A DNA stretch of 64,000 nucleotides, taken from positions 25,492,691-25,556,690 of the forward strand of contig JAUZTB010000127.1 of NCBI GenBank assembly GCA_034780895.1, in the 5' to 3' direction. Each line of letters opens with the position of its first letter. Position 1 is the stretch's first letter. Under the pieces are notes generated by a model, which worked only from the letters and a program-made list of their open reading frames with translations, did no database searches and was not told the DNA's origin. The translations under genes were made by a program, and so were the position numbers. Shown piece after piece: positions 8,512 to 53,005 of the stretch. The DNA is from Rhynchobatus australiae. Lineage: Eukaryota.

Positions 8512-8629
8512 CAAAATGCTGGAGGAACTCAGCAAGTCATGCAGTATCAGTCAGGAGAGAAAGGACCTTCAGCCCTGATGCAGGGTCTCGATCCGAGACC
8601 CTGGTCTGCTAAGTTCCTCCAGCAGTTTG
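8512..8629. mobile_element. Short fold-back element made of two inverted Penelope-type termini
   Basis: 23-bp inverted arms at 8512-8534 and 8607-8629 (2 mismatches) and an internal perfect 10-bp hairpin at 8581-8603. Confidence 0.7.
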
Positions 8630-8869
8630 CTTTTTTAAAACCCTTCAGATCAGCCTGCTAATGCTACCTCATCAGCATTTTATGTTTTCATTTTGGATTT
8701 TCAGTACCTGCAGAATTTTTTCTCTACTATTTAATTGAATCTCTGTTAGTAGTAGTCTGAGTGTGTCAAAAATATTAGAGTGCTCACTGAGAATGTTAAC
8801 ATGCATGATGAAATGCACTGAGCTTCTAGACCTGCTCCTACTCCTACTCCAAAGCTCCCTGCTTGCATG

Positions 8870-9310
8870 CTTGCTCACTATCTCAATCTCTTTTTCTCTG
8901 CTCAGTCCTCTCTAAGTCCCTTTTCTCGCCCCCCCCCCCCATTTGTCTGTCTAAATTGTTATCCTTCTGCCCCCAATTCTGCTCTTCCTCTGGGCCTCAT
9001 CATTTGCCCCTCACTCCCAGGTCCTGTCCCTACTCTCCATAAGTTCCTGACTCTTCATCAGGAACTTCTGGAGAGTAGGGACAGGGCCTGTGTTTGCTTC
9101 CCTCCCTAGCTCTGCTCTCCTAAGATATGCCCCACCCCATTTGCTCTCCATCTGCTATGCATCCCTCCCCCTCTCCACTTTCACTCAGTTTAGACCAAAT
9201 TCCAATCCCGGTCGTCACTCCACTCTCCTTCCAGACCAGCTGCCCCGACCCATACTCCCCACCCCCACCCAATCTAGAATCTCACTTACCAGTGGACTTA
9301 CTCTCTTGAT
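8870..9310. repeat. C/T-rich low-complexity tract
   Basis: Strong pyrimidine bias including a long C run at ~8929-8940; produces spurious Pro/Ser/Leu-rich ORFs. Confidence 0.6.
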
Positions 9311-11876
9311 GGACATTTATCCTCAAACTTATGCCAAGTCTCACTGTTGTTTTGCAGCTGGAACACAGTTGAACATAATGGCCCATTGCTCTTTTGGAAC
9401 TGCTTTTTTTGTTTGGGCATATTTCCTGTTACTGCTGTGGTTGCAGTCATCTCATCATAAAATGTGGTTGCTGTTTCAATGATGCTTGTCCAGCATTTTC
9501 ACTCTTGTTTTGTTCCATCTGAACAGATAACTAATAAGCTGTAACAAAGGAGGTAAAACATCCACAGTCACTAAAAAAAACGATGCTTTAATTTTAAGAA
9601 CCAAACAGTTAAAGTTTACATGTAGAGTATTGGAACTCTCATTCTGAATTCCAACTTTAGCTGTCACATACCAGCAACAGAAGAAACACACCGAGTCAAA
9701 CNNNNNNNNNNNNNNNNNNNNNNNNNNNNNNNNNNNNNNNNNNNNNNNNNNNNNNNNNNNNNNNNNNNNNNNNNNNNNNNNNNNNNNNNNNNNNNNNNNN
9801 NNNNNNNNNNNNNNNNNNNNNNNNNNNNNNNNNNNNNNNNNNNNNNNNNNNNNNNNNNNNNNNNNNNNNNNNNNNNNNNNNNNNNNNNNNNNNNNNNNNN
9901 NNNNNNNNNNNNNNNNNNNNNNNNNNNNNNNNNNNNNNNNNNNNNNNNNNNNNNNNNNNNNNNNNNNNNNNNNNNNNNNNNNNNNNNNNNNNNNNNNNNC
10001 AATTGTTTATGATTTAGAAATGTATTGAGATCACTAGCTGGACATCATTGTCTTTTTCATTTTTGTTTACTAATCAAAAATATATTTAGACATATCAGGA
10101 TTCTCAATTGGTCACATATGGTTATACCTAACACATTGGATTGCACTCTGCTAGGAGAAATATTCTATTTTGCTAGTTTCTCAACTTAACATTTCTGCTT
10201 CTAGATTAAATAACCTTTTATCCCTATACATTACACATTCATCTTTGAAGAAGCAATCAGTCCATTTAATTCAAGGTGTAATATAAACTAAACTAAGCAG
10301 TCAGCTCTTTCTCTTTGAGTTATTTTCTCTGGTATTTTCACATTTCTGCAGAGAAGCTTGCTGAAAATATTTCACTTCACTGCTTTTTCTATTTTTGGAA
10401 AATATGCCTCACCCCCATCACCTTTTCACTTTTTCATCCTCTTGATGATGATCACATGAGTGACTGTTACCTAGACCTACACTGTTCTATTCTGTCGTCA
10501 GCAGAAGGAGTGGAAGAGGTGCAGTGAAATTATTTTTCCCATGATTTTTATTCTTGCCAGATGGTAAAGATGAAATAAGATTTGGTGTAGAGTGAAATCA
10601 CATCTTGATTGGATCGTTATGTAGCATCATTTATTGGGTCTACATAATGCTTTATTGAACTTCATAATCTCTGATTTAGACTGCTTTAATTGGACCCTTC
10701 TGGAGATAACTCTAGTGATTTAGCTGCTTGAGTTGGAGCTTCTGACCTCAACCTGCCTCCAGACTGTCAGCTTTTCATCACATGGCTTGTACCGTGTTAT
10801 GGGATGTGAAGTGACCCAGGTCATTACAGGTATATGAGGCAGTTTGGAACAGTGACTTATGATCTATTTAGAAGCCATGAACTATTGAGGTGAAATTCAA
10901 TTTTTTTTAGTTTTCACTCAATGTTATTTCATTCCAAAACATTGAAAACTACTCTAAATAAGTTGCTATCTGTTCTATCCAGTAATGTACTTCATTGCTT
11001 TTGTGTATTGAGCTGCTAAGACTGATCTCTTTCTTGCTTTGTAAGTCAGACTTGCAGGCTACTGATTTATCTTGTTAACTGATCTGATTCCTTTAAGTTA
11101 ATTTCATATATGAGGAATGGCTTGTTTACTTACAGCCATTGCATGCTTAAGGTAGATAATCAATTCTGATTTCAGAAAGAAAGCAAAGTTGTCCTGGTTA
11201 TCTCCTGAATGGACCTGATTACTATTGACTGCTAGCTTCTAATTTCTTCTGTTGTGGACTTTGCTAAGAATGTAATCCATCTATATAATGTTAACATTTT
11301 CATTAGTTTGCTGTGGCTGTATTCTTTATTTCAAAAATCATTTTTATCATAATTTATTCTATAAATAATCACATTGGGGGAGAAAAATGAAGTATTTGCT
11401 CAATCTCAAATGCCATTTTGAATAATTGCAAACTCAACCCATTGCATTGAAATTGTGCTATAATATATAATTTATCGTTCCTTGGCCACTAATTCTGAAA
11501 GTTTTTGATAGTTAATTAATAGAAAATGCTGAGCATAGCTTCAATATATCATAATTCATAGTACTTTATCATGCAGAAAAATATTTGGTTTTGTGAGTTC
11601 TCTGTGATTGNNNNNNNNNNNNNNNNNNNNNNNNNNNNNNNNNNNNNNNNNNNNNNNNNNNNNNNNNNNNNNNNNNNNNNNNNNNNNNNNNNNNNNNNNN
11701 NNNNNNNNNNNNNNNNNNNNNNNNNNNNNNNNNNNNNNNNNNNNNNNNNNNNNNNNNNNNNNNNNNNNNNNNNNNNNNNNNNNNNNNNNNNNNNNNNNNN
11801 NNNNNNNNNNNNNNNNNNNNNNNNNNNNNNNNNNNNNNNNNNNNNNNNNNNNNNNNNNNNNNNNNNNNNNNNNNNN

Positions 11877-12155
11877 AGGCAGAAGATTTGGGTGGTGGGG
11901 GGTGTGGAAGGTGGAGACCAAGAGTAAATAGTTGACAAGTGCTGGTGTTGCCTGAGAGAGGGTAGTGAATTGTTAATGACAACTATTCTGTCTGGAGAAA
12001 GGATTGGAATCTGTCCACTCTGTCCCGTTCTCTGCAACTTGAAATATGCCTGTTTTCTAGGAATTTCTACTTCTGATAAAAGACTATCAGCCAAAAATGT
12101 TACCTCTTTCTCTGTCCACAGATGCTGAATGTTTCCAGATTTTCACCATTTTCTA
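11877..12155 (+). mobile_element. Degraded Penelope-type terminal fragment
   Basis: ctctgcaacttgaaatatgcc...ttctgataaaagac...tccacagatgctg resembles the terminus at 34940-35130; the left boundary is uncertain. Confidence 0.5.
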
Positions 12156-12914: not shown

Positions 12915-14235
12915 AGTTGCTTCCAGAGATCGGTCATGGCATGCGTTAACTCCACTCTCCCAGAAAACCTCAACCCACTGCAATTCGCCTACTGCCTAAA
13001 CAGGTCTGCAGCAGATGCCATCTGTCAGGCCCTACACTCACCTACGTTTGACTACAGCTCCGCCTTCAATACTATACTTCCAAGCTATAGCTCATCACCA
13101 ATGCCAAGACCTGGGACCTAACACCTCCCTTTGCAACTGGATCCTTGACTTCCTGACCAACAGACCACAATCAGTATGGATAGGCAGCAACACCTCTGGC
13201 ACAATTATTCTCAACACTGGTGCCCCACAAGGCTGCATCCTCAGCCCTCTAATGTGCTCCCTAGACAGTTGTGATTGCGTGGCCAGACTCTGCTCTAACA
13301 CCTTCCAGAAGTTTGCAGATACCACCATGGTGGGCCATATCTTAAATAACGATGAGTTGGAGTACAGGAAGGAAATAGAGAGCTTAGTGATGGTGTTGTG
13401 ACAACAACCTTTCACCTTTCCCTCGATGTCATCAAAATAAAAGAGCTGGTCATTGACTTCAGGAAGGGGTGGTGCATTTGCACCTGTTTACATCAATGGT
13501 GCTGAGTTCGAGGGGGTTGAGAGCTTCAAGTTTCTAGGAGTGAACATCACCAATAGCCTGCCCTGGTTCAACCATGTAGATGCCACGGCCAAGAAAGCTC
13601 ACCAGCACCTCAACTTCCTCAGAAGGCTAAAGAAATTTGGCATGTTTCCTTTGACATTCACCAACTTTTATCAATGCACCATAGAAAGAGTNNNNNNNNN
13701 NNNNNNNNNNNNNNNNNNNNNNNNNNNNNNNNNNNNNNNNNNNNNNNNNNNNNNNNNNNNNNNNNNNNNNNNNNNNNNNNNNNNNNNNNNNAGCTCAGCA
13801 CATCACGGAAACCAGCCTCCCCTCCATGGACTCTGTCTACACTTCTTGCTGCCTCGGTAAAGCAGCCAGCATAATCAAAGACCCCACCTACCCCAGACAT
13901 TCTCTCTTCTCCCCTCTCTCATCAGGCAGAAGATCCAAAAGTCTGAAAGCACCACCAGGTTCAAGGACAGTTTCTATTCCACTGTTATAAGACTATTGAA
14001 TAGTCCCCTAGTACGATAAAATGGAGTCTTGACCTCACAATCTATCCTGTTCTGTCCTTGCACCTTATTGCCAACCTGCACTACACTTTTTCTGCAGCTG
14101 TGAACTTTACTCTGCATTCTGTATTGTATTACCTCATTGCATTGTGTAATGAATTGATCTGCATGAACGGTACGCAAGACATGTTTTTCACTGTACTTCA
14201 GTACAAGTGACAATAATAAACCAATTCAATTCAGA
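12915..14235 (+). mobile_element. Rex1/Babar-type LINE, 5'-truncated, disrupted RT
   Basis: ORF pieces [65 protein letters not shown] and FLRRLKKFG; ends aataataaaccaattcaattca. Confidence 0.92.
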
Positions 14236-14344
14236 AAAATGTTATTGTAAAAGAACAGGCCAGAATGGCCAGAAACCATCTGATTAGTTGTTGATACTTT
14301 TGTTCTAATGAATTTATCAGAATCTTTGTAATTACAATGATTTG

Positions 14345-14690: not shown

Positions 14691-15154
14691 TTCATTTTTA
14701 AGTTCACCTTTATGGAAAATGAACTGTTCAAAAACAGATTTTCATAGGCTGTTGAAATACATTTTGCTGCCTAAAACTTGAAGTCTATAGTATATACAAA
14801 TTTTGAGATTAGAATTAGAACCCAGATTTTATTCAATACAAATTTTTGGAACTTTGTCTTGATTTTGAGTCTGTTTTCACACTTCAGGTAGTAGGAATGA
14901 CACAAGTTTGACAATTTTGCTGCTGAAATGTTTTTACCCTCCAGAGTATTACTTAATTTTCTCAGTCTTCCAGTCCTAACAGTAGCTGCAGCAGTTCCTG
15001 CCTCCCAACTCTCATTGTCACCATTGTGTACATCTTTGATCATACTCTCTGTGGAATCTTTTCATTGGAAGTTTAAATAAAGCTAACCTGCACTATTTTT
15101 AAAAGAAACTGAAGTGTGGAAGACACAATGCAAAAAAAAATATATAGTCAAGGC

Positions 15155-16610
15155 CTGATCAGGAATAGTCAGCATGGTTTTATGTGTGGGAGGTCATGTC
15201 TGATGAATCTTTTGGAGGTTATTGAAGAGGTAACTAAGGGGATAGATGAAAGTAGAGCAGTGGATGTTGTCTATATGTAAGGCCTTTGACAAGGTCCCGC
15301 ATGGCAGGTTAATCTGGAAGGTTAGGTCACATGGCATTCATTGGGAGCTGGCAAGGTGAATTCAGAATTAGTTTGATGACAGGAAGCAGAGGGTGATGGT
15401 TGAAGGTAAGTTCTCCAACTGGAGGCTGTGACTCATGGGGTCAGTTTAAGGACCTCTGTTATTATGTATGTAAATGATTTGGATATGAATGTACATGGCA
15501 CGATTAGCAAGTTTGATGTTACTAAATTAGGGGGATGTTGATAATTAAGCAGGCTACAATTGGGTGCCAGGGGTAAGTGATTAGATGCTCTTTTGTTGGA
15601 GATAATCATTGCTTGATGCTATTGTGGTGTGAAAGCTTCTTGTCACTTATCAGCCCATGCCTGAATATTGTCTAGATCATGCTGCATGCAATGAGAGGTG
15701 GGGAGTGGTTTCTTGTTGATAGTGAAGCAGGTTACAATGAATTGTAAAGAAATCTTGATCGGTTAGGTAGATGAACTGAGGAATGGCAAATAGATTTCAG
15801 CTTAGATAAGTGTGAGGTGATGCATTTTGGACATTCAAACCAGGGTAGGACTCGTACAGGGAATGGCAGGGCGCTGACAAGTGTTGCGGAACAGAGGGAC
15901 CTGGGAGTACAAGTGCACAGTTTGCTGAAAGTGGCCACACAAGTAGACAGGGTGGTGAAGAAGGTGTTTAGCATGCTGGCCTTCATCAGTCAGGGCATCG
16001 AGTTTAGGAGTAGGGACATTATGTTGCAGTTATATAAGTCGTCGGTGAGGCCACACTGGGGGTATTGTTTACAGTTTTGGTCACTCTGTTATAGGAGGAC
16101 ATTATCAAGCTGGAGAGGGTGCAGAAGAGATTTACGAGGATGCTGCCTGGAAATAGAGGGCCTGAATCACAGGGAGAGGTTTGCCACGCTGGATCTTTAT
16201 TTCTTGGAGTGTTGGAGAATGAGGGGTGACCTCACAGAAGTTTATAAAAGACTATGACTGTCCACCCTATCCATACCCCTCATGATTAGTCTTTTCCCCA
16301 GGGTTGGGGAGTCCAAAACTAGAGGGCACAGATACAAGATAAAAAGGGTGATATTTAAAAGAGACCTGAGAGGTAACTTCTTTACACAGAGAGTAGTGAG
16401 TACCTGAAATGAGCTATCAGAGGAAGTGGTCGAAGCGGGTAAAATTGCAACATTTAAGAGGCATTTGAATTGGTACAGGGAGGGGAGAGGCTTGGAAGGT
16501 CATGGACCAAATGTGGGCAACTGGGACTAGTAGGGAGGTTGCTGTGGTCAGCATGGACCAGTTGGGCCAAAGGGCCTGTTTCCATGCTGTATTACTCTAT
16601 GGCTCTATAG
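15155..16610 (+). mobile_element. CR1 LINE, 5'-truncated, RT plus 3' UTR
   Basis: SQHGF, AVDVVY..KAFDKVPH, KCEVMHFG, EQRDLGVQVH, LYKSSVRPH and RMRGDLTEVYK motifs; ends gggcctgtttccatgctgtattactctatggctctat. Confidence 0.92.
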
Positions 16611-17093: not shown

Positions 17094-17241
17094 ACATGGG
17101 GAACTTTGAAGGAGGCGATCGACGTATTACAATAACACAAGGTCAGGCGGCAGTGCTAAAATCTCCGAATCTCAGCAGTTACCCACAACCGCAAATGACA
17201 TGGTTTCGCGATGGCCAAAAGATTATCCCCAGCAATAGAAT
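17094..17241 (+). CDS. SDK1: Sidekick internal exon (Ig2 N-terminal half; equivalent of exon 4)
   Basis: Acceptor cttgtatctgcag|AC, donor AT|gtaagt; 148 nt, phase 1 to phase 2. Translates (Y)MGNFEGGDRRITITQGQAAVLKSPNLSSYPQPQMTWFRDGQKIIPSNR(I). Not in the ORF track because it is too short. Confidence 0.93.
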
Positions 17242-21579: not shown

Positions 21580-22035
21580 ACTGCATCACTGTTGGCTTGA
21601 GCTGTGGCATCTCCTCCAATTCAGCATTTCACAGCTTTTATGTGTTCTTTTGTGTTTTCTCTCTAATTATGCTCATTAACCTATCAAGCAGATGGCTCTG
21701 TCGACAACTTATCACCATGGTGGTCTTGGCCTCACCCTATCAGAGAAATCCCCTTNNNNNNNNNNNNNNNNNNNNNNNNNNNNNNNNNNNNNNNNNNNNN
21801 NNNNNNNNNNNNNNNNNNNNNNNNNNNNNNNNNNNNNNNNNNNNNNNNNNNNNNNCTTGGCCTCACCCTATCAGAGAAATCCCCTTTTGCCCTCTCCATC
21901 CCTTCCCCCATCCTCTCTCCAACTAGAAGCTAATTTATTTTCTCACTTTTTCAATTCTGATAGGTCTTCAGTCTGAAATGCTAGCTCAGTTTCTTTTTCC
22001 ACGAATGCTGCCTTACCAGCAATTTTTGTCTTTAT
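21580..22035 (+). mobile_element. Penelope-like element 3' terminal fragment
   Basis: Aligns by eye with 34690-35110 (gtcgac, ccttat(c/t)ag(a/g)ga, ctgaaa, atgctg); interrupted by a 100-N gap. Confidence 0.6.
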
Positions 22036-22949
22036 TTACTGATTCAACATTGGGATTAATCTTTATCACACATCATCTACACACTCTGATGTATTTTGGG
22101 AGGAGGGCAGTGAAAGGCTAAAAATTAGCCAAAATTTGTTACTTCTGGCTCCTGACATTTCCACTCAGTTTCTTTGCCCTTTTTAGAATGATACCGTCAT
22201 CCACCTTAAACGTAATAATCTGCATTGAAAGGAGCATGGTTGTTAAAGAAGATCCTTGAGGAGGGAGTGCATTGTCACTGATGGACTGATACATTGGAGT
22301 TAGACTTCTCACCCACCCATTCTTTTGACGTGGGTGGGCAGGCTTCTGTCTCTTCAATTGTCCTCCTTCTTTGACTGATGCATCACTAGTGGCACAGTAA
22401 CATCCCACTGATTTTAAAATAATGTGACTTACTGCAATTTCCATCAAGATGAATAGCAATATTACCAGTGAACTCATCAAGTACTTATCCACAGGGCTGA
22501 CATCCTGGGTATTTTGCTGAATTTAATTTTTTTTCAAATATCTAATAATTTCATGGCAAATGAAATGAAAGCTGTGATGCATCTTTAATTTCTCTGGCCA
22601 AGAAATTTTCTGGCGCCCTGCTTTACAGTCACTCTGTTGGCCATGTTATCATCTGATGGGAGATGTGCATGAGCAGTACAAAACAATCATTGCTTCATTT
22701 CCAACTTTCTTTAGAGGAGCTGCCTCATTACCTGCACAGATGTCCCAGGTTTGCTTTATCATTTCAAAAGGCAATGCATTCTGCAGTAGATTCTGTATCT
22801 GTTTGTATAGAGAAGAAATGTTTTTTTGCCAGGTAAGTATTTTTCAGTCACTTGAGCAAGGCCTTATCTCCTGTGAACAGAGGAACAAGGAGATCATGAA
22901 GGATATAGGCAGAGGAAAACTGTGTTCCCATTGGCAGAGGAGTCAAGAA

Positions 22950-24710
22950 TTTGAAGACACATGGATGGAACCATATTTAGGGATTCATCTGCGGATCTGA
23001 ATGAATATGCCACAGCCGACATTGACTTCATCAAGCCCTGCCTGGATGAGTGTGTACCTTTGAGAACATGTCAAATTTTCCCAAACAAGAAGCTCTGGAT
23101 GAACCAAGAGATTCAGAATCTGCTGAGGGCTAGATCTGTGGCATTCAAGACAGGCGATCCAGCACCCTACAGGAAGACCAGGAACAACCTATGGAAAAAC
23201 ATAGTGAGAGCGAAAAGGCAATTCCATGTGAAGTTAGAGACACAATCGGATGCATGGCAGCTGTGACAGGGTTTGCATGCCATTACTTCCTATAAGTGAA
23301 ACCTAGAAGCATAAATGGCAGTGATGCTTCACTCCTTGATGAGCTCAGTGCCTTTTGTGCTTGCTTTGAAAGGGAGAACAACACTACACTTGTGAGAATC
23401 CCCATAGCATGCAGCAACCCTGTGATCTCTGTCTTGGAGGCCGATGTCAGAACATCCTTCAAGAGGGTGAACCCTTGCAAGGTGTCAGGTCCTGGCAGTG
23501 TACCTGGCCAGGTACTGAAAACCTGTGCCAACCAACTGGCTGGAGTGTTCAAGGACATCTTCAACCTCTCACTGGTGTAGTCAGAGGTTCCCACCTGCTT
23601 CAAAAGGGCATCAATCATACCAGTGCCCAAGATGAGCAGGGTGAGCTGCCTCAATGACTATCACTCAGTAGCAGTTTATTGATTACAGCTTGGCATTCAA
23701 CACCATCATCCCCTCAGTACTAATCAACAAGCTTCAAAACCTAGACCTCTGTACCTCCACAGTCGATGTGGATCAGTAACAACATTTCCTCCTCACTGAT
23801 AATCAACACAGATGCACCTCAATCATGCGTGCTTAACCCACTGCTCTACCCCCGCTATACTCAAGACTATGTGGTTAAGCACAGCTCAAACACCATCTAT
23901 AAATTTGCCAGTGACACTACAGTTTGTAGAATCTGAGATGGTGACGAGACATACGTGAGTGAGATAGATTGGCTGGTTGAATGGTGTCGCAACAACAACC
24001 TTGCACTCAATGTCAGCGAGACCAAGGAATTGATGGTGGACTTCAGGAAAGAAAAGTTGGGAGAGCACACACCAGTCCTCATTGAGGGGTCAGTGATGGA
24101 AAGGGTGAGCAACTTCACGTTCCTGGGCATGAACATCTTGGAGAATCTACCCTGCCCCCAACACGTTGATGCAATCACAAAGAAGGCATGCCATTGGCTC
24201 TTCTTCATTAGGATTTTGAGAAGATTTGGTATGTCACTAAAGTTTCTCTAGATGTACAGTGGAGAGCATCCTGACTGGTTGCATCACAGCCTGGTATGGA
24301 GCATCCAATACATGCAGAGCATTGTAGACTCAGCCAGCTCCATGATGGTCACAGCTCTCCCTACCATCGAGGACATCTTCATGTCCTTCGAGGACATTGA
24401 AGGCAGCATCTATCATTAAAGATCCTCACCCTTCATGCAGATGTCCTCTTCTCATTACTATCATCAGGGAGGAGGTACAGGAGCCTGAAGACCCACACTC
24501 ACCGATTTTGGAACAATTTCTTCCCCTCTGCCATCAAATTTCTGAATGGTCCATGAACTTTACTTTGTTATTCCTTTCTTTTTTGCACTATTTATTTATT
24601 TTGTAATTTATGGTAATTTTATGTCTTTGCGAGTTACTGCTGCTGCAAAACAATAAATTTGTGATAAGAAACAATATAAGTTAGTGATAATGAACCTGAT
24701 TGTGATTCTG
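22950..24710 (+). mobile_element. Rex1/Babar-type LINE with internal deletions
   Basis: [63 protein letters not shown] and FTFLG motifs; many stops; tail gaacctgattgtgattctga. Confidence 0.92.
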
Positions 24711-25074
24711 ACACTGAATGGAGGGGATTGGCCAAATATCATCTGGAAAAATGTATTTACATTACAATTTATTAGGGTCTGAAATGCATTATGCTTGGTT
24801 GGACGAAAGGTTCAACTGTAATGTTTAAGAAGAGCTGGATAAGCATCTGAAAGGAGAGAATTGGCCATAAGGAGAGGGCTGTATTGCTTTCATATAAAGC
24901 TGTTAAGGACTTGACAAGTTGAAAGGCCTCTTCCATGCTGTACCCATCCTGTGATTTTTGTCTCCTTCCAATCAGATTTTCACTCCACAACAGTATTGAA
25001 GCAGTTCATGGAGAAACTAATGATTTTTCTCTCAATCACATAGGACATCAGGTATCTGTTTGTGGCTTGAATAG

Positions 25075-25410
25075 AAATGTAAAATGCTGGAAATACTTAG
25101 CAGGTCAGGCTGCATCCGTGGGAAGAGAGAGAGTTAATGTTTTAGGTCAAAGACACTTCATCAGTAGTGGGAAGTTGGGAAGCAGAAAAGCAAAGCTTGC
25201 TAAGGTGCAGAGAGGGAAGGAGAGGGGATGTCTCTGATAGGGTAAAACTGGAGTGTCCAAGGGGATAAACTGTAAACAAGAATGAGTGGTGAAGGGTCCC
25301 AACCCGAAATGTCAACTGTCCATTTCCCTACATAGATGCTGCCTGACCTGCTGAGTTCTATCAGTGTTTTGTGTGTTCCTCCAGATTCCAGCATCTGCAG
25401 TCTCTTGTAT
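25075..25410. mobile_element. Inverted pair of Penelope-type termini
   Basis: Minus copy ~25075-25240 and plus copy ~25285-25410 (cagcaggtcaggc-type / gcctgacctgctg arms), each with a hammerhead-like core. Confidence 0.7.
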
Positions 25411-27879: not shown

Positions 27880-28580
27880 AATAAAAATGGAAATACTCAA
27901 AGTCAGGCAGCATCTGTGGAGAGTAGAGTTAATGTTACATGAACTTTCATCACAAAGGGAAAATATAGAATCATAATAACATGTCTTAAGTGCCGAGGAG
28001 TGAACAAAGAATGTCTGTGATAGTGCAGGGACCACAATAGACTGAATGACACAGGTGCTGGTTGTAAATGCTGGGAGAGGGGAGTGAAGAGTTATTAATC
28101 ACAGATGATCAGTCTGCAGGAGATTTAAATAGAAGAAGATGAATGAAAACAGCAGAGGAGAGAGAAAGGAAAAGGAAAGAAAAGTAATGCTGGAACTGGA
28201 GATACAAGCTGGATAAGCAAAATACTGCANNNNNNNNNNNNNNNNNNNNNNNNNNNNNNNNNNNNNNNNNNNNNNNNNNNNNNNNNNNNNNNNNNNNNNN
28301 NNNNNNNNNNNNNNNNNNNNNNNNNNNNNNNCCATTCATCTGACCAGTACTGATACGCACTGGAAAGGCTGGTTGTCTGAAATTGTTGAATTAAATCTTC
28401 AGGGCTGTAATATTCCAAGTTGGAAGATAATATGCTGTTCCTCAAACACACCATCAGCTTTGTTAGAACAGCATCAGAGTTCAAAGGCACAGAGGTTAGA
28501 GTGGGACTGGGATGGATAATTAAAGTGATGGGTAACTGGAAGCTCAGGATCATCCTTGCAGACTGAATTGCTTTTAGACT
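27880..28580 (-). mobile_element. Penelope-like element 3' part
   Basis: Reverse strand of ~28375-28445 reads EEQHIIFQLGILQP, matching the PLE GIY-YIG C-terminal motif LEEQHLIFRLGxLQP; the terminal repeat family lies at 27885-27950. Confidence 0.7.
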
Positions 28581-31469: not shown

Positions 31470-31965
31470 AAAAGCAAAATACTGCAGATGCTTTGCAAAA
31501 CACCTCTGTTCAATGTGCAGACTTGATGCCAAGCTTTCAGTTGCCTGTTAGTTTAATTCTCCGTACTACTACAACCCTGAAGCGGAAGGTAATCTTGAGG
31601 AACAACACCTCATCTTCCAAATAGAGATGATATCCCACTTTATATCTCATGTAAAGTTTATTTTTTTCATCTGGAATTTCACATTGTTTCTTCATACATA
31701 CCATCCTTTATTCAACCATCCTTCATACATACCTTTCGTTATTCACAGTTTATCACCTGGCTCCATTACCATTTCTGTTATTTAATCTCTCCTACTTTAC
31801 TTTTGTTCTCTTTTGCTCCTACATCCATTTTTCTGCAACAGAAAACTTGTTTTATCTTTATTTCTGGTCTTGATAAAAATCCATTCACTTGAACTGTTTT
31901 CTCTGTTTATCTCTCCACAGATGCTACTTGGCCTACTCCGCATTTGCAGCATTCTGTTTATTTCC
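31470..31965 (+). mobile_element. Penelope-like element 3' fragment, internally deleted
   Basis: FAKHLCS and cttgaggaacaacacctcatcttccaa (LEEQHLIFQ), followed by the terminal repeat family. Confidence 0.7.
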
Positions 31966-32789: not shown

Positions 32790-34320
32790 TTCTTTAAAAA
32801 AAAAGGAAAGGGGATAAATTCTATTGTCAGTGGCCAGTCAGTCAAGTGATGTTTATGGGGAATCGTTTGAGACAAAATTATTTGGCACTTGGAAAATGTT
32901 GGCATAATAAATTAAGTCGACATGAGTTTGTTAAAATGAAGTCATGCATGGCTGCGTTGATTGAATTCTTTCATTAATTTATGGGGATGGTTGATGAGCA
33001 TACTATGTCATTAAAAGGAATTTTTACAAGCTGTTTAATAAAGTATCAAATAATTGAATTTTAGGAAAAACAAATGAACATTGGCAGCAAGGAAACAAAA
33101 TTGGTAAAGGGACAAAAGACTAAGAAAGCTAATAACCATGGAAGAAAAACACAAAATGCCAGTCAAGCAGCATCTGCGTGAAGAGAAATCAAAATGTTTT
33201 GGGTCAGCGACCCTTCCTCAGAACTGAAATGCTGAGCTGAGCTGCTTGACTGACTGAGTTCTTCCAGCATTTCTGTTTTTATTTCAGATTCCAGCATCTG
33301 CAGTTTTGTCTGTTTTCCAGTATCCCTTTTGTCTTCTGCAGCCACTTCTCCCCTCGCACACATTCTCTGTATCTTAATAGCTAACTATTTCTTTCTTTTA
33401 TGACTTCAAACAAAAGATTACTGCTCTGAAATGTTAACACTGACTTGTTGAGTATTTTCAGAACTTTATATATATCTTTTGCTTTCCAACAACAGTATTT
33501 TATTTCTCTAGTGACTAGAGGGAGCTAAATAGTGGTATTCAGCAGTTGTCATGTTGGTATTACAATTGCTGCCCATTTTTGATACAAGTCAATGACTTGG
33601 ACTTGAGCAGTAGGGGCTTAATTTCAAAGTTCGCAGATGGGTCAAAACATAGCCTGTCATTATTAAGATAATATTGCATTAAGACTGTTTAAATATAAGT
33701 AGTAATACATAGAATTAACTACAATATGCAGTGAAGAGCCATCTGACCTAAATAGTCTATGTTGCTGTTTATGCTAGACTCAAGCTTCCTCATATTTCCT
33801 TATCTAAATCCATCAGCATTGCCCTCTTCTTTTGCTTGTCTGGACTCCCTGAAATATAACTGTGTTTTTTGCTTCATCCACTCCCTTCGATAGTGTGTTC
33901 CATATTCTCACTACACTTTGAGTTAGGACATTACTTCTGTATTCCCAATCAGATTTGTTGTTGGCTTTTTTGGCTTCTAATTTTCTCATTTTATACGGCT
34001 CACTATTATATTTTTGAAATATGAATGTAACTCGTTCTGGAAACATTTTCACAGTATCCATTCTTTTGCGCCTTTCATAATTCATTAGCCAACTCCTTAA
34101 CTGCCTTTTGGCAAAAGAGAACCAAATTATTAGAAGGAACAGAGGGAAGATGAGTGAAAACAGAACACCTTGAGTGTGGAGGTCTGAATCTGATTGCCTC
34201 AAAGTGTCCTTTCGGCAGAAACCTGTACAATATTTAAAATGCACTTGATTGTGTATTTGATGTGCCATAGCCTACAAGGTCACAGACAATGAGCTGGAAA
34301 GTGATAAATCATAATAGAAG
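32790..34320. mobile_element. Mosaic of old CR1 fragments on both strands, with nested Penelope termini at 33150-33500
   Basis: + strand SRHEFVK..SC and ISKFAD motifs (32915-32950, ~33620-33640); antisense CR1 3' end at ~33705-34120. Confidence 0.55.
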
Positions 34321-34324
34321 ATAT

Positions 34325-35130
34325 AACCTCTGTCCTATCTCTTCCCTTTCCAGTGCCTAGGACCTCCAATAGTTTTTCCAGGTGAAGCAGCAAGTCCCGC
34401 CAGCACTTCTTCCAATTTAATGCACTGCATTCGATGTTCACAATGCAGTTCTCTCTGTTTTGGAGAAATCAAGCGTACATTAACTGATTGTTTTGTGAAA
34501 CACCTGTGTCAATCTTCAGGAATAACGATGACCATGACCCTCCCTTTGCATGCTTGATTAATTTTCCATCCCTCTCCCACACTGATGTGTTTTTCTGTGG
34601 CCTCCTGCACTGTTACAACAAAGCACAACACCAGCCTGAGGAATGAGATCTCATCTTCCATCTGGATGTGTTGCAGCCTTCCAGACTCAAATGTTGAACT
34701 CTCCAACTTCATGTACGCTTTTTTTCCTGTCTTTCTGTCTGCATCTGAACTGGCCATTTTGCCCAGTCATCCATCTGTGATTTTTGGCTCAGTTTTTCCC
34801 GCTCTAAAGTGGCTACCCAGTAGGCTGGCCTACTGTGCATATCCACAGTCCTACTATTGGTACAGACAAAGGAGCATAACCTGCCTCTGACTTTCACACT
34901 TACTCGTTTGGTCGACCTTATTAGGGATATTCCCTTTCTTCAGCCCACCCCTCCTCATTTGCTCTACAACTGAAACTAACTTACTTTTCCCTCTTTCCCA
35001 GTTCTGACAAAAAGTCTTGGATCTGAAACATTAACTCTGTTCCTCTTTCCTTGCATGCTGTTCTGACATGCTGAGTGTTTCCAGCATTTTCTATTTATAT
35101 TTTAGATTTCCAGCATCTGCAGTTATAGTT
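34325..35130 (+). mobile_element. Penelope-like element: GIY-YIG endonuclease remnant plus terminal repeat
   Basis: ~34411-34512 reads SNLMHCIRCSQCSSLCFGEIKRTLTDCFVKHLCQ (PLE consensus SNVIYCIxCxxCxxxYIGETKRxLxxRFxEH), then DLIFHLDVLQPS, then the terminal repeat with a hammerhead-like core at 35004-35035. Confidence 0.85.
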
Positions 35131-36269: not shown

Positions 36270-36385
36270 GACAGCAGAAATTGTAGATGCGGGAATCTAG
36301 AGACAAAGAACAAACTGCTGGAGAAACTCAGCAGGTCAGGCAGCATCTATGGAGAGAAGGGAATGGTCATCGTTTCGGGTCGGTT
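36270..36385 (-). mobile_element. Penelope-type terminus
   Basis: ctgctggagaaactcagcaggtcaggcagcatctatggag...cgtttcgggtc; truncated inside the hammerhead stem II. Confidence 0.75.
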
Positions 36386-37639
36386 ACCATTCTGTTGCCA
36401 TGCTTTCTTCCTTCATTGCATTAAGAAAATGGAGCAGCATGAGGTCATCTTTTGACCTTAATTCATCACCGGTTGAATACTGCAGAAAAATGGAGAAAAT
36501 TGGTTACAGATTGGGAGGGCTATTAATAGTCCACTTACGAATTATTGTTGCTGTTTTCCTAAATAATGGCTGTAATACTATATAGTGGAAAGAGGGGAAA
36601 ACTGGTACTTATACTATTACTGTTGTTAAAATGAAAGACAGTATTGACAAATTGTGTGTCCTAATTTATTTGGAAGCATTTGAACTATTTTAATTAACAT
36701 CTTTCCCAGATCCTTTTACTTCTTCCAAGCATCTGGGAATAATGTAGGTGATGCAAGCATTTATCTGATTATTTATTTGTATTAGTTGTTTTATTTTGTA
36801 CAGAGTGTTTGCTGTGGATCTCAATTGGTTCAAATGCCTTGTTAAATGGATATCCTTAACCCAGGAGGAAAAGTTCATGTTGACCATAATGGTGCTGTGT
36901 ATATTAAGCATGCCTTGTAGTTAAAGTTCTTCTAGCACTGTTCACGTTAATGATGCAAATAAATGTCCAGAGAATGTTGTTTTGCAAGAAAAGGACAGTA
37001 ACATAAAAGAATTTTAAAATGATGTATTTCCTTGATGTATTGGCAAAGACTGCTACTCATTCATTCTCCTTAGATTGAAATATGGTGTTGCAGTTAGGAG
37101 ATTAGAAATGACTTACTGGTACTATGGAATTTATCAAAATTACCCATTATTATATTGCAGTCAGGCAAGCAACATACCCCTATTTCCAATCGGGGCATTT
37201 TTCCTATTCCCAGTCCTTGCAGTCATCTTTTCCAAAGTGACTTTCACAAAAAAAAAGAACAATTTCTCAGGAAATTTCCAACAGTGAAATAGAATCTTAG
37301 ATAGAGAGCATGTATGATTATGTGATTCTTTTATTGTTTGGACTGTACAGACTTCTTATGGCAGTTCTAATTGGGAATGCCAATATTCATCGAAATTCCA
37401 GACTTGCAACTCTGCACTGTCAAGCTAGGAGTTAACATTTAGATTTGGTTTTTCAATTTTGTCAGTTCCCTGGGTAACTGAACATCAAACTGGAGTCCAG
37501 CATCTGAGCTTAGTGTTGGTGTAATTCCCTATCATCATGTAGAGGAATTGCCTTTCAGGTCTGATCCAAGATGCCAGTGATTTCAAGGCAATAATTTGGG
37601 GGGCAAAACAAATATATATTACCTCTTTAATATTTTTAA

Positions 37640-38575: not shown

Positions 38576-38644
38576 AATGTCTTCGCCTCCACAGTTATTT
38601 CAGTTTGATATTTTAAAAATTATTTTGAGTGCTTTATCAGCACA

Positions 38645-40200
38645 TTAGAAATAGAAACACAAGTCAGCCAGTCAGCCCCTCAAGCCTGCTCTGCCATTTA
38701 ATAAAATTGTGGCTGGCCTGGTTGTAACCTCGAGTCCTGATACAGGGTCTCTACCTGTAACGTCAACTGTACATTTCCCTCCATGGATGCTGCCTGACCT
38801 GCTGAGTTCCTCCAGCATTTTGTGTGTGTTCCAGCATCTGCAGAATCTCTTGTGTGTCCATATTTCTCATCTACCTTGGTAACCTTTCAACCTCTTCCTT
38901 ATCAAGAAATTATCTACCTTTGGCTAAAAATATTCAAAGTGTATGCATTCATTGGCCTTCGCGGAAGAGTTTGAAAGTCTCATGATCCTTTGTGTCTTTA
39001 AACAGTGGTCCCCTAGTTCAAAATTCTCTCATAGGTGGAACCATCATCTCTGCTTCCACCCTGTTAAAAACCCTTCACAGTCTCACATGTTTCAGTTAAG
39101 TCACATCTCAGTCTTCTAAGCTCCTGCAAATACAAACCTAGCCCATCCAACTTTTTCCTCTTGAGATAATTCGTCTATTCCAGGTATTTATTGAGTCAAC
39201 TTTCTCCTAATTGTAATGTATTAACATCCTTTCTTGGGTAAGGAGGCCATTGCTATGCACAGTACTACAGATAAAATCTCATGCATGCCTTAAGTAACTA
39301 AAGCATAACCTCTCTAGTTTTGTATTTAAATGCTTTATCAATAAACATAACATTCTGTTTGCTCTCCTGATCATTTGCTCTAGCTGCAGACTGGCCTCAA
39401 GGACTAGGACAGTGAGATCCTGCTGCATCTTGGAGCTCTGCAAATTCTCCACGTTTAGATAATATATTTTTTAATGTACTTTCCCAGTAGAATTTCACAT
39501 TTTCCCATATTATGAAAATCATAAAAAACTGCAGGTGCTGGAAATCTGAAATAAAAATAGAAAATGCTAGAAATGCTCATCAGGTCAGCATCATTTAGCT
39601 TATCAATATCCCTTTGTAGCCTCCATATCCACTCTTTACTACTTAGTTTCCAACCTATCTTTGTCATCAGGAAATTTAGCAACCATATTTTTGATGCCTT
39701 CCAAGTTAAAAGAGTTGAGGTTTTGGCACTGATCCCGATACCACACCACAAGTTACATCTTGCCAACAGTGATAGAACCATGAAGCCTCACCTGTACTTC
39801 TTGATAGCCAATCTTCTATTCATGCCAATATGTTCCTCCTTCACCATAAGCTTTTAATTTCTGTGATAACTTTTGATGTGACATCTTATCAAGTGCTTTC
39901 TGGAAACATTCAATGGTTCATCTAATGGTTATCCACAGTGCATGTTACTTTTTCAAGGAAGTTCACTAAATTGGTCAAATTCATTTTCACTTTCACCAAG
40001 CTATGCTGACTTTGCCCGATTAACTTGAGCTTTTGTCAAGTACCCTGCTGTGACATCATTAACAACAGCTTACTTCACTCCTGCCAAAGCAGATGTTCTG
40101 TAGTTTCTTGTTTTGAATGAAGGAATAACATCTGCCATTTTCCAGTCTAATCTAACCCACCCCAAATCTGGGGAATTTTAGAAAATAAAACAAATGTATC
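38645..40200 (-). mobile_element. CR1 LINE fragment with nested Penelope termini (38733-38858 plus strand; 39515-39590 minus strand)
   Basis: Antisense CR1 tail at 38645-38730; reverse-strand RLQRDIDKL and (D)VFQKALDKMSHQ motifs. Confidence 0.75.
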
Positions 40201-46477: not shown

Positions 46478-46654
46478 GTTGGCATTAAGAGCCTTGAGTC
46501 TATGCATTGGAAGCACAAAGAAACCCAACACAAATGGTAGAAGGAGTGCACCACCTCCTAAATTACCTACCTTCCCGCTCTGTCGGGCATCTGTGGGCCT
46601 CACCTTTGCCTTTGTCAACCATCTCAGATTCCACAGAACTCAAGTGGAAGGAAC

Positions 46655-46875
46655 AACAAACAATCTGTTGGAGAAACTCAGCAGATCAAGCAGCTTCTTT
46701 GGGGGTGGTGAAGGGGAATTGTCAAAGTTTTGGGTCGAAACCCTGCATCAGGACTGAGAGTGGAGAGTTGGAAGCCAGTGGCAGGTGAATGATAGATGCA
46801 GGCAGACAAAGAGAAAAAAAAATCAGTGGCAGATGGAGCAAGTTTTTTTTCCAGATTTCCTGCATTTGCAGGATA
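46655..46875 (-). mobile_element. Penelope-type terminus
   Basis: ctgttggagaaactcagcagatcaagcagc...gttttgggtcgaaaccctgcatcag; same family as 52670-52800. Confidence 0.75.
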
Positions 46876-46899
46876 GCTAATTTGGATTCCCAGCGCCAA

Positions 46900-48244: not shown

Positions 48245-49435
48245 GGTATCTGTGAGTCACTGACAAGGCCAGGATTTATTGCCCATCGCTAATTGCACTT
48301 AAGAAGGTAGTGGTGAGCCACTTTCTCAAACCACTGCAGTACTTTTGGTGGACATACTCCCACATTATTGTTGGCTAAGAGATGAACGATTTAGACCCTG
48401 TGATGAAGGAGGACTGGTGATGTAATTTCATATCAGGATGGTATGTGATTTCAAGGGAAATGCAGTTGGTGTTATTCCTTTACACCTACTGCCCTTGGCC
48501 TGCTTATGATGGTACATATTGCTGTCACTGTGCATTGGTGGTAGAGAAAATGAACGTTTAGAGTGGTGAATGGGTGCCATTCAAGTGGGCTGCTTGTCCT
48601 GGATGGTGTTGAGAACTTTTGGTTGCTATATTCATCGAGACAAGTGAAAGTACTCTGTCACATTCCTGATCCGTACCTTACAGATAGTGAAAAGGCCTGG
48701 GCTGTCATAAAGTGAGTCACTCACTCAGGATACATTTATTCTTATGACATGGAAGGAGGCCATATACTGGCTCTAAGATCAATTCCATTTCCTTTAACAC
48801 ACTCACATGCTGATGAACTCCCCCTGATTGTCCAACCACCCACCTACACTGGGGGTAATTTACAGTAATGAATTACCTACCAACCAGCATGTCTTTGTAA
48901 GAAACCCTCAGGTTACCTGGAGGAAGGAACTCTCACAGTCACAGGGAGAACTCCACCTAAATAGCACCAGCGGTCAGCATTGAACCCAATTCATTCGAGC
49001 TGTGAAGCAGCAGGACTACTTGCTGTACCTCATTGTGCTATTCTCTCCAGGCTCTGACCTAGTCTTATAGCTATGGTATTTAGCTGACTAGTCCAGTTGA
49101 GTTTCTAGTCATGAGGGACCCCTAGCATATTGATAGTGGGGTCATGGCCATAGTAATGCCATTGATTGTTGGGGATCAAAGGTGGTTTCACTGTCCTTTT
49201 GGAGGTGGTCATTGCCTGGTACCTTGTGGCATGAACATTACCTCCCACTAATCAGCCCATGCCTGAACTCTATCCGGGTCTTGCTGCATGCAGGCACAGG
49301 CTGATTCTTTTGCTGAGAAGTTGCAAATGACATTGAACATTATGCAGTTATCAGCAAACATCTCCACTTCTGGCCTTATGATGGAAGAATGGTCATTGAT
49401 GAAGCATCTGAAACTAATTGGTCCTGAGACATGCA
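48245..49435 (-). mobile_element. CR1/L2-group LINE fragment interrupted by a SINE
   Basis: ORF 49248-49436(-): GPISFRCFINDHSSIIRPEVEMFADNC...QQDPDRVQAWAD (RT). Confidence 0.85.
48740..49040 (-). mobile_element. tRNA-derived HE1/V-SINE-type SINE nested in a LINE
   Basis: Antisense B-box (ttgaaccc at ~48980) and V-domain-like body similar to 63020-63365; possible tattct duplication at the flanks. Confidence 0.75.
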
Positions 49436-52079
49436 TGAAAGCTATTGTACAAAATTAATGTTGACCAATATTGGTGGGATCTGAGCTGCAGAGTGAGAAA
49501 TTGTCATAGTTTGAACAATATGTTTTAACATTAAATAATTAGTATGAGATGTGCAGTATTTGAGCATCTTGGATTTTCTTGATGTCCTCTTAGCATTGTT
49601 GATCTTAAATCATTTCTAATTTGCCTGTTGAGATTATTTGCAATAAAACACTTCTACAGATCACAAGCACTCCTTCAAACTGGGTAAAAATATGCAATGT
49701 ATTATTAGGATCGCTATAGATATGACTTGAAAATGACATCTTTGTTTTCAAATGACAACGTACATGGAGAAAAAAGGTCAGCCTTGCCAACAAGTAGATT
49801 TANNNNNNNNNNNNNNNNNNNNNNNNNNNNNNNTGCAAAGTAATTTCAGGAAAGTTTTAGCTTTAAGGAAGGTTTGACAGATTTACCAACTTATGTTGAA
49901 TACAAGAATGTTAAAAGAGAATAGCAAAGTTTCTAGACTGAGGCATACTCCACAAATAAATAATAAAACTGCATGAGTAAGGCACTGCCTGCTTGTATTC
50001 TCCCATTCAAATCTAGGTACTGTTATCAGAAGAGGGAAACTGCAGAATGGAGGCAAAAAAGCACAGACGGAAGCAAAATATTTTCCCATGGGTGAATAAA
50101 TAAGGTAATGCAAAACCAGATGCCAGATGGGAGATGACATTATGTCACCTGGGGTCATATTCATTTTCACAGAGGGTTGACTCCAGTGTCCGTCATTTTG
50201 CTTCGTGGTCTCTTGGGGAACTGACTATATGGAGAAGGGGGAAAATGGTCCACCCTATCAGCTTTGTTGTACCCTTTTGCCCTTGCCTGAATTTATTTCG
50301 AAGTAGGACTTACTTGATACATTTATTGGCAGAACAGTTCTCTTGTTAATAACAAATTGTACTGATTTTCTATATTGCCTTGCTCATTCTGACTACTTTA
50401 TTCACTATTCATAATTTGCTTGAAACATCTTTCTTAGAATCGGAAACTCCCTGTTCCATGAGATTCAGCTCTTCCTATCCCTATCTTCAAAAAGAAATTG
50501 ATGACCTTATGCTAGAAGTTCTCTTAATTTTTTATGACTTTACACAAGAATGGTTTCATAAACTGAATAAGTTCCCAAATGAGCTTCTATCATCACGTTT
50601 TATAAACCAACCTAGATTATTAAATTGCAGAAAGTTCAGTTACTCAGGTCCATGCAGCATTTGCACATTGCCTGATGAGATCAATGATAAACAACAGTTA
50701 AGCTGGAATTCTATCTGGAAGTTCGATGACACCCATGTTTGATATTTTTCCTTCCATCAGAGCACTGAGATTTGATGCTTCTAATATTAGGCCTTGCTGC
50801 TCACTGTCATATAGCTAGCTGCTGGTTGGAGACGACCGGAGAAAGAATTTGGCTGATGTTCAGTTTCTTTAATGGATTGGGATTGGTGGCAACTGGGATG
50901 CCAGGTCTTGGGTTTGGAAGTTACAGAAATAGAGCTCTTGGATGTGGGATACTGAGAAGTAGCACAGTCAGCAATTAGCATTCTGAGTATCTTATTTTTG
51001 TAGGTGTTGATTCAGGGTGCCCTATATCCTCTCGCACAACTGTGTAATCGAATGTTATAGCAAGAGTCAACCTAGAAAATCTGGTGCACCTGAAGGATGT
51101 GCAGATGAGATTGCTCATGGGACCTGCGGCTGGCGGGGTGGGGGATGAGGGCCATGGAGCCCAGAGTTCAGGGTAATTGGTAGGCCAGCCGGCACCCTAG
51201 TGTTATGGGTGAAGGCAGGAGAACATCGGGATTCTGACAGACCTGCACATGTGTTTGTGTTAGAGGAGGTGGGGTGCATTNNNNNNNNNNNNNNNNNNNN
51301 NNNNNNNNNNNNNNNNNNNNNNNNNNNNNNNNNNNNNNNNNNNNNNNNNNNNNNNNNNNNNNNNNNNNNNNNNNNNNNNNNNNNNNNNNNNNNNNNNNNN
51401 NNNNNNNNNNNNNNNNNNNNNNNNNNNNNNNNNNNNNNNNNNNNNNNNNNNNNNNNCAGGAGATGAGGGTCATGGAATGGGTTGGGGATGAGGGGGAGGG
51501 AGAGTGCTGCAGAGAGGCGAGGAAGTAGGCAAACGTTTCTCAGCCAGGTCAGTGCAGTGCAGTGGGAGAAAGACCACTTGTTGCAGAATTGACCAGTGTA
51601 GTCCAGACTCCTTTGGATTGTTCCAAAAGGCATCAGAGTTACAAAGGTAAATTATGGCAGGGAATGGTCAATCAAAATTCCCAAGTAATGCAAATCAGCC
51701 AAGAAAGGGCCATTACCCTGCTTTACTCATGAGAGAAAACAAAAATTGCTCATGCTGAATAAAACTGGATAATGCAATTAATTTTCCAGGCAGTATTGCC
51801 CTATGACTGGAACTGAATATTCATAGTCCTCCTCCGTCTGCACTCTGCTTCAATCTCTCCAAAAGGAACCAAAGAAATATTTGGTGAGGTTTAAGATGGC
51901 AAAAGTGGATAAGCCATTTTATTTCACAGTAGGTTAAGAAACTGAATACCAGTTACAATCAGATTCTCTTAATTCAATTAGTACAATTTACCTTTGTAAA
52001 ATAATGTAAAATAAGAAACATCCCCTACTTCTCAGCATTGGTGTATCTTTTCTATAGTCCATAATCTGTATTTCATGTT

Positions 52080-52185
52080 TCCTTACAGCATAGAAGGAGG
52101 CCATTCAGCCCATCAAGTCTATGCCAGCTCTCAGAACAATCCCATTAATCTGTTTATTTCCTTATAACATATTCTCTCATGTGTT
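52080..52185 (-). mobile_element. SINE/CR1-type 3' tail fragment
   Basis: acagcatagaaggaggccattcagcccatcaagtctatgccagctc. Confidence 0.65.
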
Positions 52186-52660
52186 CATTCTTCTTCTTAG
52201 GCAGTCCTTCAGGATTGTGGATGACTTCCTCCACTCTGGTTTTTTGGTCTCTAAGGTGCCAAATGAAGCCAATGTGGAAACCACAGACTCTTCCATAGAT
52301 GGGGTAGGAAGCAGCTGACCGAGCAGGAGGGTGGGTAGTTAGTGAAGTGATATGTTTCTTCAGTGCTAATGCACGGCCTATATGCTCCTGATGCATGGTC
52401 ATCCTGAATGCTGCTTCTCCACATGTATGACAGTGGTTCCCAAGAGTCAGTGAGGATGTGGTACTTCTTCAAGGAAGCCTGAATCTTTATCTCTGCCATC
52501 CTTGTAATCTCTTCCCATGACAGAGCTTGGAATGAAGTGTCTATTTTGGGAATCTGGTGATGGGCATTCAAATAATGTGGCCTGCCCAGTGTAGACATCT
52601 GAGAGTAGAAAGGAGTTCAATGCAGAAGGTGATGGCCTGAGAGAAGAAGATGACCTTGGT
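52186..52660 (-). mobile_element. RTE-clade LINE 3' fragment
   Basis: Reverse strand ASLKKYHILTDSWEPL...WRSSI resembles the RTE RT C-terminus; tail TAA(GAA)n at ~52187-52200. Confidence 0.7.
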
Positions 52661-52669
52661 TCACCAATC

Positions 52670-53005
52670 AAACTGCTGGAGGAACTCAGAGGGTCAAGCA
52701 GCATCCGTGGAGGCAAAGGGATGGTTGCCATTTCAGATCAAGCCCCTGCATCAGGACTGAGAGTGCAGAGGGGAGATATCCAGTATAAAGAGGTGAGAGN
52801 NNNNNNNNNNNNNNNNNNNNNNNNNNNNNNNNNNNNNNNNNNNNNNNNNNNNNNNNNNNNNNNNNNNNNNNNNNNNNNNNNNNNNNNNNNNNNNNNNNNN
52901 NNNNNNNNNNNNNNNNNNNNNNNNNNNNNNNNNNNNNNNNNNNNNNNGAGCCAGGTGGGGGAGGGGAGGCAGAGGCAGAGACAGAGGCTACGAGATGATG
53001 TGGAG
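52670..53005 (-). mobile_element. Penelope-type terminus (spans a gap)
   Basis: aaactgctggaggaactcag...tttcagatcaagcccctgcatcaggactgagag. Confidence 0.75.

Follow-up and report, generated by a model that had tools for sequence, protein, structure and literature searches.

Decayed hammerhead motifs in SDK1 introns of Rhynchobatus australiae as probable ends of Penelope-like retrotransposons, and a lineage with an altered core

We analyzed a 64,000-nucleotide (nt) stretch of the Rhynchobatus australiae genome (assembly GCA_034780895.1, contig JAUZTB010000127.1, positions 25,492,691 to 25,556,690 of the forward strand; hereafter the window), in which an earlier note had pointed to about ten degenerate hammerhead-ribozyme motifs within Sidekick introns. 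Judged by their sequences and surroundings, these motifs are very probably the decayed, 5'-truncated 3' ends of Penelope-like element (PLE) retrotransposons carrying a minimal type-I hammerhead sequence. The catalytic core is incomplete in every window copy, and the copies are likely inert passengers in the introns of SDK1. This kind of element is already known (Cervera and de la Pena 2014); the point added here is a lineage with an altered core.

All seven motifs listed in the note were present as written, with the same coordinates and strands, as were the partial copies at 8575 (+), 21957 (+) and 36372 (minus strand, without CUGAUGA). They are parts of a repeat of ~140 nt, for which nhmmer gave 21 matches in the window and models of the subfamilies gave 18; no match was obtained in 20 dinucleotide-shuffled windows. 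The copies are given below, assigned where possible to subfamilies A, T and C.

8505..8641, + strand: fold-back stump with the beginning of a C-lineage motif (CUGAUG-C at 8575) that breaks off after GA; an inverted tail precedes it
12058..12144, + strand: decayed T-subfamily copy, absent from the earlier list
21944..22049, + strand: decayed T-subfamily copy with a core deletion
25046..25178, - strand: copy of the T subfamily with core positions 3-9 whole and G12 replaced by A; stem III reads CA for CG, and stem I is broken in its 5' strand
25271..25405, + strand: copy of the A subfamily with C3 and A6 both replaced by G, CpG-type changes and no 5' strand of stem I
27885..27955, - strand: partial T-subfamily copy, stem II deleted
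31867..31964, + strand: strongly decayed copy
33120..33305, - strand: copy of the T subfamily with its core at 33221, G12 replaced by A and stem I lacking its 3' strand; inverted tail abutting at 33241-33305
34992..35123, + strand: T-subfamily hammerhead, the 3' pseudo-long terminal repeat (pseudo-LTR) end of the element at 34366..34690; G8 to A, CG to CA, mismatched stem II
36276..36392, - strand: 5'-truncated copy without CUGAUGA; subfamily margin just 1.5 bits
38724..38848, + strand: copy with an A-type tail; A replaces G8, position 9 is C and U replaces A13
39526..39591, - strand: tail-only fragment
46626..46767, - strand: C-lineage copy with CUGAUG-C, UUCG loop and 3' strand GACAA; further decay G12 to A
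52643..52769, - strand: C-lineage copy with CUGAUG-C; further decay U16.1 to G
53806..53968, - strand: partial T-subfamily copy, inverted tail abutting

Whole cores were sought as CTGANGA-N13-14-GAAACGTH on both strands. No window copy matches this pattern on either strand, in agreement with the claim that none is fully intact, and the cores bore out a fossil state with lesions of CpG type. Two details of the earlier description had to be amended. The note took all deviations from CUGAUGA for lesions, but the C at position 9 (8575, 46751, 52754) is a trait of a whole lineage. Similarly, the loops do differ between copies, as had been said of a persisting stem II, but this variety reflects subfamilies plus decay, with stem II having either 4 bp (GGGU/ACCC) and a 4-nt loop or 5 bp and a 3-nt loop. 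The anticipated stem II covariation did not materialize: among the 24 hand-picked sequences used for all structure counts, 0/4 pairs change on both sides. Fold-back stumps, in which an inverted tail adjoins the motif, were seen at 8505-8641, 33120-33305 and 53806-53968. The neighbouring copies at 25046-25178 (T) and 25271..25405 (A), oriented away from each other, belong to different subfamilies.

Elsewhere in the genome the motif occurs unbroken. An exact 27-nt version has 274 matches (0 for the reversed control), and relaxed descriptors that demand a whole core and an unmutated palindrome recovered at least 1,421 copies of A type (control 1) and at least 213 of T type (control 0). The flanks, which the pattern leaves free, read CAGTC before the core and GACTG after it; therefore, helix I closes the motif as in a type-I hammerhead. 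The unbroken form thus has CAGUC/GACUG as helix I and GGGU/ACCC, closed by a 4-nt loop, as helix II; CUGAUGA and one extra A stand between them, and GAAA-CG-UC follows helix II. Helix III is the palindrome ACGU alone, which is present in all four lineages distinguished below (A, T, D and C). Both CUGANGA and GAAA-(CG)-UH are found together in lineages A, T and D. The minimal type-I architecture proposed earlier, with its core, closing helix I and a helix II that begins with G10.1-C11.1 after one extra base, is accordingly what the genome contains. In 29 A copies found with the relaxed pattern, a 5-bp helix I was present in 18 and a 4-bp helix II in 22. A folding model predicts that monomers form helices I and II yet mis-pair the core.

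The family is abundant, as had been supposed, with at least 1,634 whole-core copies plus dense decayed ones. We counted 48 repeat matches in 180 kb of readable sequence in the SDK1 region and 62 in 155 kb of its flanks, from which a crude extrapolation yields 0.5-0.9 million matches genome-wide. Whole cores are rare among copies not picked by pattern (A 3/35, T 1/38, C 0/31). The 3' ends of A and C copies cluster ~70-82 and 100-115 nt past GAAAC, giving two ends ~35 nt apart.

The link to Penelope comes from a coding remnant in the window.

34366..34690, + strand: GIY-YIG endonuclease remnant of a Penelope-like open reading frame (ORF), with stops and frameshifts

As the note had observed, this remnant lies upstream of the motif at 35004: it starts ~620 nt before the repeat, and endonuclease similarity stops ~315 nt before the core. 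Its portion at 34366-34491 has 88 scored genome matches. We fetched 30 GIY-YIG loci (the window is one), and in 22 of them the repeat lies 320-1160 nt downstream, on the same strand; it is upstream on the same strand in 4 and downstream on the opposite strand in 3, and several of the 8 remaining loci have runs of N or lie on short contigs. The 42-aa window remnant and two neighbouring frames had no Pfam match, and the best of five genomic endonuclease fragments reached GIY-YIG at E=0.24 (1/5 fragments). While a word-index protein search with a GIY fragment found no match, a HMMER search with a cleaner natural fragment returned 3,205 proteins, with the top named homologues from Leucoraja (skate), Rhincodon (whale shark) and Hypanus (stingray); a likely chondrichthyan family, as proposed, fits these best named homologues. 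RVT_1 and GIY-YIG (Pfam) occur together in 7/11 long homologues scanned (E<=0.01). One homologue gave 110 genome matches in which the reverse transcriptase (RT) and endonuclease parts are colinear, and in 11 of 20 loci with both parts the repeat is found 266-543 nt past the ORF match. An inverted copy at the 5' break was seen in four of these 20 loci (L195, L201, L205 and L206). With the repeat trailing GIY-YIG remnants in one set of loci and an RT and GIY-YIG ORF in the other, the Penelope origin suggested by the note is upheld. 'Open frames' of 662-1,158 aa at the remnant matches were discarded, as those among the matches listed were runs of N.

A CX2-5CxxC linker between RT and endonuclease is present in 30/62 decayed copies and in 5/5 homologues, and it points to Neptune or Nematis. 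The element is likely of Neptune type, but may instead belong to Nematis. In the parts of Craig et al. (2021; PMC8557442) that describe them, these EN+ PLEs share with our element a C-terminal GIY-YIG domain with CxxC..H..H and the linker, as well as 5' truncation, an adjoining inverted copy and an optional tail of 30-40 bp. PAc, a Poseidon element of Anolis, resembles it in having a hammerhead in the pseudo-LTR and two 3' ends that match two RT start sites, although it belongs to another clade and has no linker, according to sections of Frangieh et al. (2024; PMC11167929).

The junction between ORF and repeat has features of its own. The ORF stop overlaps a splice-donor-like AG or AA followed by GTAA (L046, L249, L265; 34999-35003 in the window), 15 of 26 ORF-end junctions begin with AGGTAA or AAGTAA (plus one with AGGTAG), and a pyrimidine tract ending in CAG runs into the 5' strand of helix I. 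The donor-like end and the tract to CAG resemble the reported Penelope intron of D. virilis, and the 3' untranslated region of the element may be an intron. A search for a spliced genomic copy gave one match, itself an unspliced C copy. Contigs of four runs covered an A-type element in thousands of short pieces with 373 joints, of which the 15 listed do not match the predicted intron; contigs cannot show cut ends. No RNA record containing the window copy was listed.

Several observations weigh against reading these repeats as PLE ends with a hammerhead. A two-sided change is seen in only 1/9 pairs, and 20/500 shuffles reach the same score. That sole compensatory change, C-G to U-A at the first pair of stem I, is a single event between lineages, and the T copies in the alignment were picked by a pattern that fixes both sides. 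(In copies not picked by pattern, this pair is U/A in 27/38 T copies, and C/G or C/A in 21/35 A copies.) Between lineages, a 60-nt tail past the hammerhead shows the same degree of conservation as the ribozyme sequence itself; therefore, selection could act on another function of the RNA end. Rfam gave 9 weak matches at E<=10 in the window, none to a hammerhead family. Finally, no full-length element with both pseudo-LTRs was found in 20 loci of 10 kb, many of them interrupted by runs of N. The weak covariation and lack of an Rfam hammerhead match would also be expected if the likeness were a chance pattern in a common repeat. We regard such a coincidence as scarcely credible, since the published PLE minimal hammerhead is matched, in its published place, at all core positions, in both stems, in the base added after position 9, in G10.1-C11.1 and in the 15.2-16.2 palindrome, and pairing is 80% in the hammerhead layout versus 19-43% in slid pairings.

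With the minimal hammerhead that Cervera and de la Pena (2014) describe in portions of their paper (PMC4209133), ours shares the type-I topology, a helix I of 4-5 bp, the additional base separating 9 from 10.1, the G10.1-C11.1 pair and the 15.2-16.2 palindrome. The likeness extends to thousands of dispersed single copies in several families and to their site in the pseudo-LTR. The helix II of 4-5 bp seen here is a difference. Our whole-core count is of the order given there for coelacanth and Xenopus, with the decayed copies adding the far larger crude total. The same portions, together with 2/3 supplement files, contain no shark, skate or Callorhinchus term, and our literature search found no paper on both hammerheads and sharks or cartilaginous fishes.

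Based on published PLE work, active elements would be copied by endonuclease-primed reverse transcription that starts just 3' of the hammerhead, so that even the shortest insertions would include the hammerhead. Its cleavage would be weak and would require a dimer or the protein of the element: sections of PMC4209133 describe no monomer activity and low dimer activity for PLE minimal hammerheads, and a need for dimers or protein is reported in the parts of PMC4209133 and PMC11167929 on this subject. A different way to account for the short copies is a separate non-autonomous family, like a short interspersed element (SINE) or a retrozyme, that propagates as a unit of its own. In its favor, many copies start within ~12 nt of the core (A 20/60, T 15/30, C 11/30), and a preprint derives animal retrozymes from PLE pseudo-LTRs (bioRxiv 10.64898/2026.07.22.740005, in the part considered here). 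Its non-LTR retrozymes share with our copies a type I hammerhead related to PLE pseudo-LTRs, and the one chondrichthyan genome in its survey was positive. However, the remaining copies have continuous 5' extents up to the 70-nt limit and on into GIY-YIG. Retrozymes are also defined there as tandem arrays, whereas our copies are dispersed singly as truncations: no tandem units each with a whole hammerhead occur in the window, and just two same-strand whole-core pairs were seen among the loci examined. We therefore consider a separate family unlikely, and favor truncated PLE ends.

These start counts come from loci L001-L030 and L081-L170, whose selection demands a core and may be biased. The 46/120 pattern-selected copies that start <=12 nt from the core do so at the front edge of helix I, not at the cut site. 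At L064 (G000:C64:3329606, 3330012), two identical whole-core A copies lie 406 nt apart on one strand as a candidate natural dimer; the pair is separated by a gap of 100 N and may be an assembly duplication. L127:1495-1620 holds two T-type motifs in short tandem, the second with CG changed to TG, and L027:1500/2102 holds a whole A core and a whole D core at a distance of 602 nt. An inverted copy lay within 250 nt upstream in 9/30 C copies, against 5/60 in A and 2/30 in T.

The host gene was identified from three exons in the window.

5229..5388, + strand: SDK1 (sidekick-1) exon encoding the first Ig domain, sets the sense strand; best match to sidekick-1 structures
7612..7718, + strand: SDK1 exon, placed by SDK proteins
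17094..17241, + strand: SDK1 exon, placed by SDK proteins; the intron after it extends beyond the window

The next SDK1 exon is ~16 kb past the window end (L068:5947). The placement in Sidekick introns is thus correct, with the copy at 8575 in one intron and the other nine in the following one. The note had added that an active sense-strand copy would cut the host pre-mRNA. Five of the ten listed copies do lie on the SDK1 sense strand, and amniotes have domesticated intronic hammerheads (PMC6155905), so one could imagine that some sense copies cleave or regulate SDK1 pre-mRNA as the conserved amniote ones do. Against this, a whole core is found in 0/48 matches across 204 kb around the SDK1 exons, orientation is 26 sense to 22 antisense without strand bias (inverted pairs feed both strands of this count, and counting the 40 kb upstream as intronic is an assumption), and the lesions are of the neutral, CpG-rich type. 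We hold such a role to be very improbable. The remark on the host pre-mRNA does not apply here: no sense copy has a whole core, minimal hammerheads are reported to need dimers or protein, and nothing points to SDK1 RNA being cut. Lacking a whole catalytic core, the window copies are likely inert.

At least four lineages are present in the genome, and three of them (A, T and C) correspond to an endonuclease clade of their own. Lineage A has CUGAUGA, GUC and a 5-bp helix I. Lineage T has GUU, a GUU/AAC helix I and a 3-nt loop, and is the oldest (tail divergence 0.17). Lineage D has CUGAAGA, GUU and one helix I mismatch. Lineage C has CUGAUGC and a 3-bp helix I (divergence 0.09). In a tree of 62 endonuclease stretches that passed filters on length, N content and model margin, 7/8 A and 8/9 T copies grouped with a support of 1.0, and 14/14 C copies grouped with one T-labelled copy at 0.967; 31 D copies fell outside these groups. 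Over 113 codons, net divergence between lineages was 1.0-1.3 at synonymous sites (dS) and 0.07-0.15 at non-synonymous sites (dN), for a dN/dS of 0.07-0.14 by a simple counting method and near saturation. This low net ratio implies that the stem of each lineage encoded a protein under selection. The hammerhead layout was kept across all four lineages despite this net dS. We rejected one further signal of selection, the changes shared within C (8 non-synonymous, 14 synonymous; p=0.0003), as these are nearly all transitions, are not tree-like and are seen in every lineage; transversions alone gave p=1.

Position 9 is A in 1,421 copies, C in 633, and G or T jointly in 100. We consider C9 inherited rather than decay because of this excess of C over G and T. 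It is carried by the C-lineage window copies at 8575, 46751 and 52754, and the copy at 38737 has C9 with an A-type tail; lineage C makes up 5/48 matches in the SDK1 region. Two further stem I pairs are lost in C (A at +4 in 24/30 and at +5 in 23/30), leaving a helix I of at most 3 bp in 29/30 copies, while the remaining core bases, the ACGU palindrome and stem II, whose loop is often UUCG, are kept. In the folding model, the mean for a competing hairpin over the core is 0.27 in C, versus 0.04-0.09 in A and 0.05 in T. Among 30 loci selected for the resemblance of their ORF to one C copy, the first downstream repeat was C in 17, A in 3, T in 1 and absent in 9. The C-type repeats start mostly ~460-570 nt after the ORF stop, and C9 was present in 13/16 that could be read by eye. 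Each of the catalytic-type endonuclease residues R, H, E and N is retained by 11-14 of the 14 C copies; one codon has a stop in 5/14, likely due to CpG decay. L192 was considered as a C element with a nearly whole ORF and dismissed: 22/30 of its closest ORF matches carry a D-type repeat, and L192 alone has a C-type one, beyond an N gap.

These sequences suggest that C likely spread with a weakened ribozyme. C would have multiplied while its master already had A9 changed to C and a 3-bp stem I, in which case full-strength cleavage was likely not needed for its spread. The stronger proposal is that C kept a working endonuclease and reached tens of thousands of copies after losing A9 and two stem I pairs, so that cleavage would be dispensable for Penelope spread in vivo, with sister lineages ~1 synonymous change per site away keeping the ribozyme whole. 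We put this forward tentatively, at somewhat less than even chances. Set against a weakened ribozyme in C, the folding model does no better for the old T copies than for C, and lineage D also has a stem I mismatch. A short stem I alone is no proof of loss, given the 2-bp helix I of Drosophila virilis in the portions of PMC4209133 cited above. Private changes in C copies (128 non-synonymous, 41 synonymous) resemble neutral decay, and the C clade is star-like and gives no clear signal of selection after the core change.

The competing possibility, which we rate as less probable but substantial, is that C carries an active core variant. The extra nucleotide could have moved before A9 (G8-C-A9) or C9 could be tolerated, and a dimer, the element protein or a spliced 5' strand could offset the short stem I. 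The retention of every other core base, stem II and the palindrome would fit such a variant, but the loss of two more stem I pairs and the more frequently predicted core hairpin would not. A9 is known as a strictly conserved base that pairs with G12, which would argue against a tolerated C9. Low-activity natural core variants do exist (PMC3088659, section 8) and the Anolis PLE hammerhead cleaves only with protein (PMC11167929, in its relevant part), whereas that section of PMC3088659 names no natural variant altered at position 9. The core variant described in portions of PMC4209133 is U3-A8, as opposed to C9 here. We found no published measurement for a position-9 change (A9C, mutational scans or an extra nucleotide) in the literature searched.

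Two other kinds of window feature were noted. A near-perfect hairpin with 33-nt arms (94%) at 9018-9090, for which microRNA-family Rfam scores are far below gathering thresholds, may be a small inverted-repeat element. Open frames at 13000-13990, 15100-16260 and 22950-24600 resemble reverse-transcriptase fragments of long interspersed elements (LINEs).

In themselves, the window copies are unremarkable fossils. What part the PLE hammerhead plays is debated: it has low activity in vitro (PMC4209133, in part), it has been suggested merely to ride on the element (in a passage of PMC8557442), and it is dispensable for insertion in one in vitro system, where PAc hammerhead mutants still insert (per the relevant part of PMC11167929). 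Naiads spread without canonical hammerheads according to PMC8557442, whereas the contrast here is between sister lineages within one genome, where lineage C would be a natural parallel to the PAc mutants. If lineage C cleaves, it would be a natural core variant unnamed in the literature examined. Either way, this one genome offers matched natural sequences, from three sister lineages with a canonical core and a fourth with C9, for testing what the hammerhead does for these elements.

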